Positions 5,851-40,833 of a DNA stretch of 64,000 nucleotides are shown piece by piece; within the stretch, counting starts at the first letter, position 1; every line of letters begins with the position of its first letter. The notes below the pieces were generated by a model that saw only the letters and a program-made list of their open reading frames with translations, had not been told where the DNA came from and searched no databases. The position numbers and the translations under genes were made by a program. Where the stretch lies: contig OX597831.1 in assembly GCA_951406725.2 (NCBI GenBank), forward strand, positions 46,872,001 to 46,936,000, given 5' to 3'. The stretch is from Octopus vulgaris (taxonomy: Eukaryota).

Positions 5851-6066
5851 AGTTAATCCAAACAAGAAAGCACAAAGAGAAAACACAACAACACGAGGAC
5901 GTGGAACAAATATAGTATTATTAGACGCTCAGGAAGAAAGGGAAGAAGGAGGGTTTAACGTTTCGAGCGGAGCTCTTCGTCGGAAACATAGGAGAAGGAA
6001 AGATCCAGAGAAGGGAAGACAGAGGAAAACAAATCGCCAACGGTACACACGCGGTCACATTTTGAA
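5851..6066 (-). mobile_element. Short Penelope-like/retrozyme-like element, family 1, embedded in (TA)n
   Basis: Homologous copies at 8806-9000 (+) and 62606-62742 (-) share the same AGTTAATCC end next to (TA)n; carries a hammerhead motif. Confidence 0.7.
5953..5987 (-). ncRNA. Minimal type I hammerhead ribozyme motif (CCGACGA core)
   Basis: Minus strand GTTT-CCGACGA-A-GAGC(TCC)GCTC-GAAACGT-T-AAAC: 4-bp stem I, 4-bp stem II, palindromic ACGT stem III. Confidence 0.65.
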
Positions 6067-6330
6067 TATATATATATATATATATATATATATATATTGT
6101 TGAGATTACTTTTATTAGGAATGAAGCAGGTATCATGGAGATGCTAAAGTTTCAGTCAATTCTTCACTCTGTCAACATCATCACTAATATCCAAGCTGAA
6201 AGCGAGGTAAACTGGATCCGAAAAGTCGTTAAATGGTATAGATATACGTGTATGCGCTTGTGTGTGTTTGAGTATGTTTGTGTGTGTGTTTGTGTGTGTG
6301 TGTGTTTGTGTGTGTGTGTGTATGTATGCA

Positions 6331-6527
6331 TAAGGGGATGCTGAAAAGTTCCTGGCTTTAAGGGTGTCGCGAAGGGCCTGGTTTGGAGGCCTAAACTTCC
6401 GACTTTTTTTTACAGGCCTTAGAAAAAACTGAATTTGAGAGGTGAGTGTGTTGAATAAAATCATAATTAACTGATTCTCCTGTACTTTCTTTTACCCAAA
6501 GCCAAGAACTTTTCCCCACCCTTCGTA
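6331..6527. mobile_element. ~200-bp mariner-type MITE
   Basis: TIR-like ends GGGGATGCTGAAAAGTTCCTGGCTTT / AAAGCCAAGAACTTTTCCCCACCC with TA flanks; copies at 8320-8540 and 54552-54770. Confidence 0.7.
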
Positions 6528-7069
6528 TGTATGTATGTATGTATGTATGTATGTATGTATGTATATGTACGTATGTATGTACGTACGTACGTACGTATGT
6601 ATGTATGTATGTATTATGTATGTATGTATGTATTATGTATGTATGTATGTATGTATGTATGTATGTATGTATGTATGTATGTATGTGTGATGTATGTATG
6701 TATGTATGTACGTATACATGTGTGTATATGTATTAATCTGTGTATCTACGTATCTTTATATATATTTATATTTTACAGATTTGCTGTGTAACAAAGTACC
6801 TCTTCTTTCGTTAATTCCACGACCTTTAACTTGTATTGAGTCCTCTCTGGATTTCTGATCACCTGTATCTTCGACTCGAGAGTCTTCCGATATATATGTG
6901 TGCGTGTGTATGCCCGTGATGTGTGGTTGTGTGTGTTGTGTGTGTACTTGCATCTATGTATGAATTTATACATACATATGCATGCACACATACATAAACC
7001 CACACAGATATCGCAAAAGAAAATAAACGCCATCATTGCTGAAAGATTTATTTCTCCTTTCTTCTTTCC

Positions 7070-7410
7070 ATATAGACTGGCCGAAGAAGAGGTATTCTTC
7101 CAGCTGCACTGCCATAGTAACCAAGTTGATGGAGATGCTTCACAGAAGAACTCCGATTCGTTTGGAGTTGATTTGCATCGTCGGTTATCTTACAACTGAG
7201 ATTATTTTCAACAATCCACCTGACAGAACGAAGTTACTTGTCAGAAGGCCCGGGTCGAACTGAGCACCATGCTATTGATTGTTATTCTTTGTTGGTGAAA
7301 TGCACAATCACCCTGTAAATTGTAGCAAGAGGAATCCCATAGAATTCTGCAATCTCATGCTGGCTAAGTCCACCCTCAGACAAAGCCATAATACACTCTC
7401 TTTAAAATAA
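7070..7410 (-). pseudogene. Tc1-like transposase N-terminal (paired HTH) fragment, inactivated
   Basis: Manual translation [32 protein letters not shown]...RPGPS...LHQLGYYGSAAGRIPLLRP with in-frame stops; partial copies at 7980-8125 and 9240-9415. Confidence 0.7.
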
Positions 7411-8319
7411 AACTTAATAATACATTAACAAGTTTGAAGCAGCAGGTAGTGTCGGCACAAATAAGACGGTATAATGTGTGCGTGTGCTTGTCTATGTGTG
7501 TGTGTGTGTGTGTGTGTGTGTGTGTATGTGTGTATGTGCATGTATGAGTGTGTATGTGTGTGTTTGTGAGAGTGAATGCTGAAAAGTAATATAGATACAA
7601 GCACACACATCACACACAAAAACAACCAAACTTCATAGGCATACACACGCACATAGACACACGCACACATAGACACACACACATACATCGACACACACAC
7701 ACACACATAAACACACACACTCACACACACACATACCGTGTGTATTTGTGTGTGTTGTGTGTGTGTGTGTGTGTGTGTGTGTGTGTGTGTGTGTGTGTGT
7801 GTGTGTGTATGCTTGCATCTATGTATTTATAAATCTTTCAATAATGGTGGCGTCTATTTTGTTTTGAGATATCTGTGTAGGTTTGCGTATGCGTGTATGT
7901 GCGTGTGCATATGTATGCATAAATGCATACATAGATGCAAACACACACACACACACACACACACACACACACACACACACAAGAGGAAACCCATGGATTT
8001 CTGCAATCTCATGCTGTCTAAGTCCACTCTCAGACAAACCCACAATACACTCTATGAAAGAAAATTGAATAATGCATTAACAAGTTTGAAACAGCAGGTA
8101 GTGTCCGTACAAATAAGACAGTATGTGTTTGTGTGTGTCTGTGTGTGTGTGTATGAGTGTGTGTCTATGTGTGTGTGTCAATGTGTTTGTGTGTGCGTCT
8201 ATGTGTGTGTGTGTGTTTGTCTATGTGTGCGCGTTTGTCTATGTGTGTGCGTTTGTCTATGTGTGTGTCTATATGTAATGTGTGTGTGTGTGTGTGTGTG
8301 TGTGTGTGTGTGTGTGTGA

Positions 8320-8540
8320 GTGGAGATTGATACTGAAAAGTTCCTGGCTTTAAGGGCTTCGCGAAATGCTTGATTTTAAGGCCGAAACTTTCGAGTTCTT
8401 TTACAGGCTTTAGAAAAACTGAAGGACTACTGCAATAATTGTGTGAATCTGAGAGGTGAATATGGTGAATAAAATCAAAATTAACTGGTTTCCTGAACTT
8501 TCTTTTACTCAAAACCAGGAACTTTTCACCACCGTTCGTA
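8320..8540. mobile_element. Mariner-type MITE, second copy
   Basis: Similar to 6331-6527. Confidence 0.65.
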
Positions 8541-38540: not shown

Positions 38541-38626
38541 TCAAGTTAATATAATTTGGAGAACTGTACGTCAGATGAAAAGACGCTCGCCCGTCATCAA
38601 GTGGCGTGTTGTCTTTTTATTAATAA

Positions 38627-38925
38627 CTAGCAGTATCGCCCGGCGTTGCTCGGGTTTGTAAGGGAAATAACTATATAAGCATTTTTAGAGAGTTACTACC
38701 CTTATATAATATCAAAAAAATGCATTAAAAATAGGAAAAAATTATGGTAATTTTTTTTTTTAATCGTAGACTCATCGTAGACGCGCGCTAATACCCAGAA
38801 GGGTTCGATATGAATCACGACTATAAGATACCCGCTTTTGGTTACACTGCACCGCAAAATGTGGGAGTAGTTAGGAATCTAAATCGTAGAAGACAGACAC
38901 ACAACTTCACTTTTATATATAAAGA
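38627..38925 (-). mobile_element. Non-autonomous Helitron (299 bp)
   Basis: Minus strand starts TC, ends CTAG preceded by hairpin CCCGAGCAACGCCGGG, inserted between A and T with no TSD. Confidence 0.88.
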
Positions 38926-40233
38926 TTTTTTTACAGTATATGAACTGGAATTATTATTATTATTATTATTATTATTATTATTATTATTATTATTATTATT
39001 ATTATTATTATACAGTGGAGTGATTGGTTGGTCATATACTGGAAAAAAATTATTAATAAAAAGACAACACGCCACTTGATGACGGACGAGAGTCTTTTCA
39101 TCTGACATACAGTTCTCCAAATTATATTAATTTTGATGCTCTTGAAAAATACATTGTTGGTGTGATTTGTATAATGAGCAAAAGTTTTATTTTTTTTTAA
39201 AACTACAAACGATGGAACTTAGAGGAAAAAACCAAAACGAAGGATAAAAAGAAACTCACATCGTAAATGAAAATGCTTTATAAATAGGAATTATCTTTTG
39301 ACAATATACAGTAAAGAACCGATATTTTTAGTAAAACGAAAATACCGATTTATAAACCCATTAATAATATTGCTTTTGATTTGTATTTTTCTTGATATAC
39401 TTCATTGTGAATTTGCTAGCTTGCTTCATGGATAATTAAATTCTATGTATTCGTTTACGTATCTTGTAAATGAGTGTAAATATGAATATACATGGTATAG
39501 CGTTCTACATAGGATAACAAACACAGTCTCCAGAGAGCACTCTTTCGTTCACTATCTCTCTCTCTCTCTCTCCCTCGATTTCTCTCTCGATTAATTGCTC
39601 TACGTTTACCACTTTCTCCAGCACTCTACTTATCTATTCACAGTCCTCTGTCTTTCTCCTCCTCCTCCTTTCTCCATCTCTCTCTCTCATTCTTTCTCTC
39701 TCGTTCTCAAATTTGCTATTTTTTATCGATAGTTCATATCTTTGCTGATGAAAAACTGTATCAATACAATCAGTTCTGTTAATGTATAATTCATATATAG
39801 CTACACACACACACACATATATATATATATATATATATATATATATATATATATTCATATATTTCTATATATACATACACACATACACATATATATATAT
39901 ACATATATGTATACATACATACATATATATATACATATACGCGCACACATTATATATACACACACGTATACAAACACAAATACAAATACATACACACAAA
40001 GACATCCAAAATAATATTATCAAAGTTGAATAAAGAGTTAGAGGGGAATGCGAATGTCATAGAGCGAAAGTTAATTGTCTAAGATTATTTTTTGCGATAA
40101 AATAATGGAATTTCTGTGATTATTAGAAACATGTGACGAATTCCCATAATTATCCGAAAGCTAAAGGCATCCCCCACACTGTTTTTCGCTTTTCATTCCT
40201 ATATCATAAAAGTTGTCCATCGGGAGAAATTTC

Positions 40234-40395
40234 TGGACAAACACACTGTGTGATGTAAAGTATGCGTATACATACTCACACACACTCGTACATATGTACG
40301 TATGTATGTATGTATGGACAAACACACTGTGTGATGTAAAGTATGCGTATACATACTCACACACACTCGTACATATGTACGTATGTATGTATGTA
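40234..40395. repeat. Exact 81-bp direct duplication
   Basis: TGGACAAACACACTGTGTG at 40234 and 40315. Confidence 0.85.
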
Positions 40396-40753
40396 TGTAT
40401 GTATGTATGTATGTATGTATGTATGTATGTATGTATGTATGTATGTGCATGTTTATAGGCATAGCATATATATATATATATATATATATATATATATATA
40501 TATATATACATAATAACAGCGGGTGGCAGTGTTATGGAGTCCTTTTTGATGGCTCTAGGTCTGATCAGTTCATTAAACAGAATATAATCACCAAATGTTT
40601 CTGTAGCAATATACAACTGTACACCCATAGAGACTACGATTTGTAATAGATTATTGCACACACACACACACACACACCCGCACGCACGCACACGCGTACA
40701 CACACACACACATATTTGTGTCTATATGTATAGATGCATATATAAGGATAAAC

Positions 40754-40833
40754 CTCTGACAGCCGTTTCTAGAATATCCTAGTTAGTGGAACATCGTAAG
40801 ATTCCACAGGTTAAGTATACAGTCATCGGAGAG
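40754..40833 (-). ncRNA. Type I hammerhead motif with long stem II (CCGATGA core, GUC site)
   Basis: Minus strand CTCT-CCGATGA-[53-nt imperfect hairpin with GTGGAA/TTCCAC]-GAAACGGCTGTC-AGAG; base of stem II is mispaired. Confidence 0.55.

Follow-up and report, generated by a model that had tools for sequence, protein, structure and literature searches.

Minimal type-I hammerhead ribozymes sit in the pseudo-long terminal repeats (pLTRs) of metazoan Penelope-like elements (PLEs) (Cervera and de la Pena 2014, PMC4209133). It is an open question what keeps hammerheads in Penelope elements and whether they cut in vivo: the ribozymes are slow in vitro, they are dispensable for insertion in vitro, and one RNA sequencing check found no cut RNA ends. 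Core position 4 is the U of the hammerhead uridine turn (PMC4105743), and the backbone contact that U4 makes is described in PMC3088659. Here we analyze 64,000 nucleotides of Octopus vulgaris DNA (assembly GCA_951406725.2, contig OX597831.1, positions 46,872,001 to 46,936,000, forward strand; hereafter the window), a stretch of microsatellite-rich repeat DNA from a 2.8-Gb animal genome in which three hammerhead cores, one in each of three repeat families (families 1, 2, and 3), carry C at position 4. From sequence comparisons, we consider it rather probable that these are inherited-C4 type-I hammerheads of Penelope-like retrotransposons (family 3 likely so) that still cleave themselves in a minority of transcripts.

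An earlier, sequence-only reading of the window had described three CCGANGA cores from hammerhead families with unrelated stems, and both observations hold. The minus strand carries CCGACGA twice, at 5983-5977 and at 22225-22219, and CCGATGA once, at 40829-40823. All three motifs are parts of type-I hammerhead folds, each in a different repeat family, and the stems of the three families are mutually unrelated. The features are as follows.

5852..6066, minus strand: family 1 stub of subfamily C, assigned to the pLTR of a Neptune-type PLE, inserted in (TA)n
5953..5987, minus strand: minimal type-I hammerhead of family 1 (site 1), from sequence and descriptor
8803..9009, plus strand: second family 1 stub, with a decayed core ACAACGA at 8869-8875 and C-type flanks
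62602..62743, minus strand: third family 1 stub, with a canonical U4 core at 62730-62724 and a flank as in the U4 subfamilies
22085..22245, minus strand: family 2 stub, assigned to the 3' end (pLTR) of a Hydra-clade PLE
22188..22233, minus strand: type-I hammerhead of family 2 (site 2), from sequence and descriptor
40750..41039, minus strand: family 3 stub, an old repeat with relatives 70-80% identical, several of them with inverted 5' duplications
40753..40834, minus strand: decayed type-I hammerhead of family 3 (site 3)

At site 1, a stem I of 4 bp leads into C3-C4-G5-A6-C7-G8-A9 (5983-5977), an extra A, a stem II of 4 bp, GAAA, and a palindromic ACGU stem III; the predicted cut falls after U17, between 5957 and 5956. 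Site 2 combines an 8-bp stem I, the C4 core (22225-22219), a 3-bp stem II, and a near-palindromic stem III, with a predicted cut after A17 (22196). Site 3 has a 5-bp stem I, the C4 core (40829-40823), and a palindromic stem III, with a predicted cut after C17 (40758); the long stem II hairpin of its family (~60 nt) lacks 8 nt in the window copy. The stem III sequences, ACGU in family 1, ACUC-U-GAGU in family 2, and ACAGCUGU in family 3, are palindromic or nearly so, which would allow a dimer. The core departs from CUGANGA solely at position 4, where the founder base is C, and its remaining positions fit. The order of three-stem junction, GAAA, and NUH is present in families 1 and 2 and, at the family level, in family 3, whose alignment locates the GAAA 60 nt downstream.

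The bare 7-mer is no more frequent in the window than chance allows: it holds 41 CYGANGA where 35.7 are expected, a count reached in 26 of 100 shuffles. A descriptor of the full minimal hammerhead matched 4 window sites (5983, 22225, 62730, and the canonical 17499) versus 0 in 200 dinucleotide shuffles; the decayed copy at 40829 fails it. The canonical site is part of a fourth hammerhead fold (17463-17503, minus strand), which has a U4 core and comes from a different family. For family 3, the fold paired 84.6% of cells over 34 pairs in 26 copies, compared with 28-44% in partner-slid controls; covariation in this alignment was not above shuffles, and RNAalifold returned another, weak structure. 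Single-strand folds of the window copies were no better than shuffles (z of −1.0, 0.9, and 0.1), as expected of decayed ribozymes of the dimer type. No hammerhead model in Rfam matched sites 1 and 2 at E up to 10, and the best 150 rows of a whole-window Rfam scan held no hammerhead model, only microsatellite noise.

Copy counts bear on inheritance. Exact 32-mer matches genome-wide gave 5005 CCG, 2381 CTG, and 192 CCA copies of family 1. The youngest intact Neptune subfamily has 1145 exact copies, with 97 CCG, 3 CTG, and 0 CCA among the first 100 matches listed, and in subfamily C, to which the window's site 1 belongs, C4 is found in 90 of the first 100 matches listed. Old family 2 has 650 exact copies (86 CCG, 5 CTG, and 9 CCA among the first 100 matches listed); 20 of its copies picked by upstream sequence comprised 10 with C4-G5, 5 CTG, 3 CCA, and 2 without the core, and family 2 contigs of three other organisms also read C at position 4. 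C4 is the inherited founder state, not decay, in subfamily C of family 1 and in old family 2, and it is probably the founder state in family 3, 26 copies of which read CG (12), TG (6), CA (7), or AG (1). A less biased search pattern returned 20 family 3 copies (5 CCG, 11 CTG, and 4 CCA); given the 11 CTG versus 4 CCA in this sample (p = 0.12), family 3 may hold U4 sublineages. A survey of hammerhead families in 2.0 Mb with position 4 left free, 0.6 Mb of it random genome stretches and with a weakly folding 3-copy CAG cluster excluded, found only C or U in the founders of well-folding multi-copy families. The well-formed families were C4, U4, U4 with A6U (41/44), or U3-A8 with U4.

Further hammerheads were seen alongside. 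CCGATGA cores with a palindromic stem III recur in other families or single copies (L052, L055, L036, L053, L027, L005, and L317). Several families carry a U3-A8 minimal hammerhead (L047 minus strand, L138:1740-2800, L080, L200, L222, L299, and L321), two of them downstream of Neptune-like endonuclease ends. A core with A6U and any base at position 7 is found in an abundant family 1 relative (L065, L070, L197, L198, L275, and others), which has U4 in 41 of 44 copies.

The host elements were traced through their coding sequences. A Penelope-like open reading frame (ORF) fragment upstream of one family 1 copy, used as a query, gave 150 scored matches, many of which carry open frames of 800-1060 codons. 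Twenty family 1 loci have ORFs with reverse transcriptase (RT) and GIY-YIG regions, a CxxxxCxxC linker, and flanking direct repeats that bear the same hammerhead; the direct repeats of the family are 768 bp long, and tandem arrays and (TA)n flanks occur. A young Neptune element retains an intact 1008-codon open frame in many near-identical copies, and its pLTRs carry the same hammerhead. The translation contains DKG, PKIHK, YIDD, and IYCIKC..YVGQT, which we take to be RT and GIY-YIG motifs; profile matches to GIY-YIG and RT were weak and below the cut-off, and neither Pfam nor PDB gave a match to this ORF. The CxxxxCxxC zinc-finger linker precedes the endonuclease (EN) in the family 1 ORF and fits CX2-5CxxC, the linker by which the Neptune clade is defined (PMC8557442). 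The same linker also occurs in Nematis, and the Neptune assignment is based on motifs. On these sequence features, family 1 fits the pLTR of a Neptune-type PLE. In the young Neptune element (L201-L210), a CA-rich 3' region of ~2.5 kb lies between the ORF and the pLTR hammerhead, and the pLTRs are 768 bp or longer.

Walking upstream from family 2 reached an EN end, and intact relatives show the motifs by which PMC8557442 defines the Hydra clade. Intact sister ORFs of 726 codons contain RWK, DKT, a CxCX5C linker (its first Cys intact in 1 of the 6 ORFs printed), and CxxC and CxH around the EN end; among 27 older loci (L231-L257), 8 have the family 2 hammerhead 0.5-1.2 kb beyond the end of the EN. 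Judged by these motifs, family 2 is the pLTR of a Hydra-clade PLE. A young intact Hydra-clade element (L261-L276), with a 726-codon ORF and tandem copies, bears a U4 hammerhead whose stem II is just 2 bp, with an A.A mismatch closing it, and one family 2 copy (L222:1850-1870) lacks the entire hammerhead between both stem I arms. Families 1 and 2 are distant, since the Neptune and Hydra-clade ORFs are only 21% identical over 526 columns. No ORF was found upstream of family 3 in 30 loci of 3 kb; a Penelope-like origin is likely because of the inverted 5'-truncated duplications seen by eye in 6 of these 30 loci.

How position 4 changed over time can be ordered from the subfamilies. The sequence-only reading took C4 to be ancestral rather than decayed, and took the CTG and ACA of other family 1 copies to be deamination products of CCG. 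Its letters are right (CTG at 62730, ACA at 8869), and a founder C4 holds for subfamily C, old family 2, and probably family 3. The oldest subfamily of family 1, subfamily A, however, has U4 in 100 of the first 100 matches listed, and the deamination reading fails for the CTG copy, whose U4 was likely inherited rather than decayed, because its flank is of the U4-subfamily type. If decay were symmetric, CTG and CCA should be equally frequent, yet the two stand at 12:1 in family 1, so that CTG is not mere deamination there. CTG is also linked to flanking diagnostics, occurring in 32/35 copies of subfamilies A and B versus 2/42 of C and D (p = 7e-16); in subfamily B, U4 is found in 78 of the first 100 matches listed. 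Median divergence is 6.1% in subfamily A versus 2.7% in subfamily C; A is older than C and D together (p = 1e-5), B is not significantly older (p = 0.19), and a cruder age comparison of CCG and CTG samples of family 1 was not significant (p = 0.15). CpG sites of subfamily C are barely more diverged than others (4.1% versus 3.7%). Family 1 likely changed from U4 to C4. Family 2 likely changed from C4 to U4: C4 is found in its old copies and in one copy whose flanks are of the young type, and U4 in its youngest intact elements. C4 is not generally ancestral; position 4 behaves as a reversible pyrimidine between sister lineages.

The ribozyme itself has been held under constraint. Subfamilies E and Y, both C4 masters and both selected via the ORF, differ at 109 of 394 fourfold sites (28%) and in 62 of 717 codons, and at none of the 26 ribozyme positions from C3 to U16.1 (p = 4e-4); their hammerheads differ at N17 and at one stem I base. 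The hammerhead motif is under constraint in C4 masters, which says nothing on the reason for that constraint. Nor is it evidence of selection for C over U, as the sequence-only reading had proposed in calling U4C a selected state.

A second line of evidence comes from where truncated copies begin. We mapped the junctions of truncated copies with their (TA)n target, with 0 as the first base after N17. In the youngest C4 subfamily, 27 of 28 listed loci begin at 0 to +10 (21 of the junctions at +4 to +10, beyond ATA microhomology) and 1 in −19 to −1; genome-wide, 10 loci fall in −55 to −25, and unique minus-strand loci number 43 in −19 to +11 versus 15 in +14 to +44. Seventeen copies have a non-C base before the cut, and all 8 of those examined are ~90-bp stubs starting at the cut. 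In subfamily C, with 106 minus-strand loci and 3016 intact copies, 25 of 30 listed loci begin at 0 to +8 and 5 upstream. The junctions lie at or after the cut in 13 of 19 cases for the U4 subfamily A (449 intact copies) and in 15 of 18 for the U4-rich subfamily B (552 intact copies). Stubs per intact copy amount to ~5.9% in subfamily C (4.6-6.7%) versus 2.9% in A (13/449) and 2.7% in B (15/552); the difference between C4 (~5.9%) and U4 (~2.8%) has p values from 0.03 to 3e-5 across the plausible range, although the stub fraction does not measure a rate, since the fragment would be lost if cutting were fast and preceded protein binding. A small, biased survey of 5' ends in sampled loci showed no step. 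The cut-site footprint is no weaker with C4 than with U4, and attenuation is unsupported. Ends that set in at the scissile bond and become sparser farther downstream are the pattern expected if a 3' cleavage product is reverse-transcribed.

These observations can be joined in one account of inherited, self-cleaving C4 ribozymes. Position 4 would require merely a pyrimidine, probably since a protonated C could make the U-turn contact of U4; this would account for a site that accepts C or U but no purine. In the neomycin riboswitch, a protonated C stands in for the U of the U-turn (PMC4105743, PMC6061696). Masters would then drift between U and C. Most insertions would be copied from uncut RNA, because most contain an intact ribozyme; the same was seen in vitro for an Anolis element (PMC11167929). 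When the ribozyme of the 3' pLTR does cut, the short 3' product, which would hold the reverse-transcription start, may be copied into (TA)n as a stub of 85-100 bp. By analogy with published relatives, cleavage would be slow and need a dimer or the element's protein; the ribozyme of the Anolis element needs protein to cut (PMC11167929). A bolder form of this account, which we put forward tentatively, is that Penelope minimal hammerheads cut in the germ line and are recorded as stubs from the scissile bond, with C4 and A6U cores cutting as well as canonical ones through the element's protein or through a protonated C4 that rescues the U-turn. If true, the ribozyme activity of any core variant could be read genome-wide from the stub fraction.

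Several points weigh against self-cleavage by inherited C4 ribozymes. Junction positions were read by eye among the matches listed (first 100 per list), and old family 2 has just 3 junction loci, too few for a step. The A6U family, in which the substitution is expected to hurt catalysis, has 35 of 40 ends at or after the predicted cut. The predicted hairpin of the youngest subfamily has its edge right at the cut, where cutting and stalling would give the same step. The pLTR consensus tree does not root family 1 with support, and the conservation of the motif could instead serve protein binding. A related Anolis element does not need cleavage for insertion in vitro, and none of its RNA reads start at the cut (PMC11167929). 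The activity of a viroid U4C hammerhead is considerably lower in vitro (PMC3088659).

Such points give some weight to an explanation that we nonetheless regard as unlikely, in which the hammerhead is catalytically dead or irrelevant here and its fold persists as a signal for binding or pausing, with a stub peak produced by RT stalling at the hairpin. The coincidence of hairpin edge and cut in the youngest subfamily speaks for stalling, as do a step seen alike with U4, C4, and A6U, the normal insertion of cleavage mutants in vitro (PMC11167929), and the spread of Naiads without a canonical hammerhead (PMC8557442). Subfamily C, however, has no predicted stable upstream-paired helix at −15 to −1, nor is such a helix predicted there in the window's copy, yet the ends of this subfamily pile up at 0 or later; in 1 of 3 folded A6U copies the stem II edge lies at −9, yet ends again fall at 0 or later. 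Moreover, unrelated families retain G5, the 3-8 pair, A9, G12-A14, and H17, and some have U3-A8 as a compensated version of the pair, which also weighs against this explanation.

Less likely still is that C4 is a positively selected attenuator, a slower ribozyme that spares the template, with C4, A6U, U3-A8, and a weak stem II as interchangeable brakes. In its favor, U4 was likely replaced by C4 in family 1 and C4 persisted into an active subfamily, the U4-bearing Hydra lineage lost the core-adjacent stem II base pair, no surveyed family combines C4 with U3-A8, the A6U family is 41/44 U4, and the slow viroid U4C is viable (PMC3088659). Against it, the cut-site stub fractions of subfamilies C, A, and B, though not a rate, give no sign of a brake; U4 is retained in many successful families; and the U3-A8 families are not independent, because they are related. 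The attenuated class proposed in the sequence-only reading is unsupported: sister lineages have switched state in either direction, and C4 does not weaken the footprint. Very improbable, finally, is that CCGA reflects copy-level decay of canonical CUGA or a chance 7-mer. The chance frequency of the bare motif in the window would suit it; the 5005 exact CCG copies, the youngest subfamily with CCG in 97 of the first 100 matches listed, the loss of C4-G5 to TG and CA alike in family 2, and the absence of descriptor matches in 200 shuffles do not, and the C4 copy counts refute this reading for families 1 and 2.

The remainder of the window is also rich in repeats. One abundant repeat forms four arrays of tandem 180-185 bp units (35305-35652, 43619-44104, 45103-45469, and 53772-54255), and near-perfect tandem arrays lie at 26883-27491 and 37942-38519 (4 x 152 bp and 4 x 144 bp). 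Open frames at 15374-16105 (+), 22941-23891 (−), 24173-24646 (−), and 25320-25973 (+) resemble what we take to be fragments of non-LTR retrotransposon proteins. A non-LTR retrozyme was also considered for the hammerhead copies and rejected: it needs tandem head-to-tail hammerhead units of 150-400 nt, and the copies here are dispersed stubs or ORF-flanking repeats.

Rather than forming a new class, C4 hammerheads are a widespread, tolerated variant of the hammerheads known from Penelope elements. What makes them of interest is that C4 occurs in an intact element, that position 4 has flipped in both directions, that the motif is constrained, and that stubs mark the predicted cut. A substitution long regarded as damaging is carried by an element that is intact and was active recently, and natural U4 and C4 sister subfamilies, with ribozymes otherwise identical, offer a ready-made comparison. 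Our literature searches turned up neither C4 PLE families nor stubs that begin at the cut site; the variant survey of Lunse et al. 2017, reportedly of about 150,000 hammerhead variants, may cover C4. As the sequence-only reading anticipated, CUGANGA-only searches overlook C4, and the published CUGANGA-based tables available to us have no C4 row. Searches should use CYGANGA, because most family 1 copies of the octopus genome are otherwise missed; a CYGANGA descriptor was applied to viromes in a 2026 paper (PMC13481778).

The elements described here share with the PLE hammerheads of PMC4209133 the type-I topology, a short stem I, an extra base after A9, G10.1-C11.1, and a palindromic stem III, along with hammerheads in both pLTRs, mostly solitary stubs, and U3-A8 sister variants. 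They differ in that the consensus and the available supplement rows of that study are U4, whereas C4 is fixed in whole subfamilies here, and in that the earlier study had no evidence of cutting in vivo. Family 2 resembles Hydra-2_aMil (Craig et al. 2021, PMC8557442) in its stem I core, stem III, GUA site, RWK, DKT, CxCX5C-type linker, CxxC, and CxH; the rows of File S2 in that paper are all ctga, whereas old family 2 is CCGA and its young sister is CTGA with a shortened stem II. The viroid U4C hammerhead (Ambros and Flores 1998, via PMC3088659) carries the same substitution, with low in vitro activity that is enough for infectivity, but it occurs there as a rare form of an RNA replicon; in the octopus families, C4 is the state in which DNA repeats of thousands of copies were founded, on a minimal scaffold. 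Anolis Poseidon (Frangieh et al. 2024, PMC11167929) likewise inserts into AT-rich DNA, starts reverse transcription just past the pLTR, and inserts mostly from uncut RNA. Canonical C3 and G8 were tested there, and that study saw no RNA reads at the cut, whereas the genomic stubs of the elements described here begin there.

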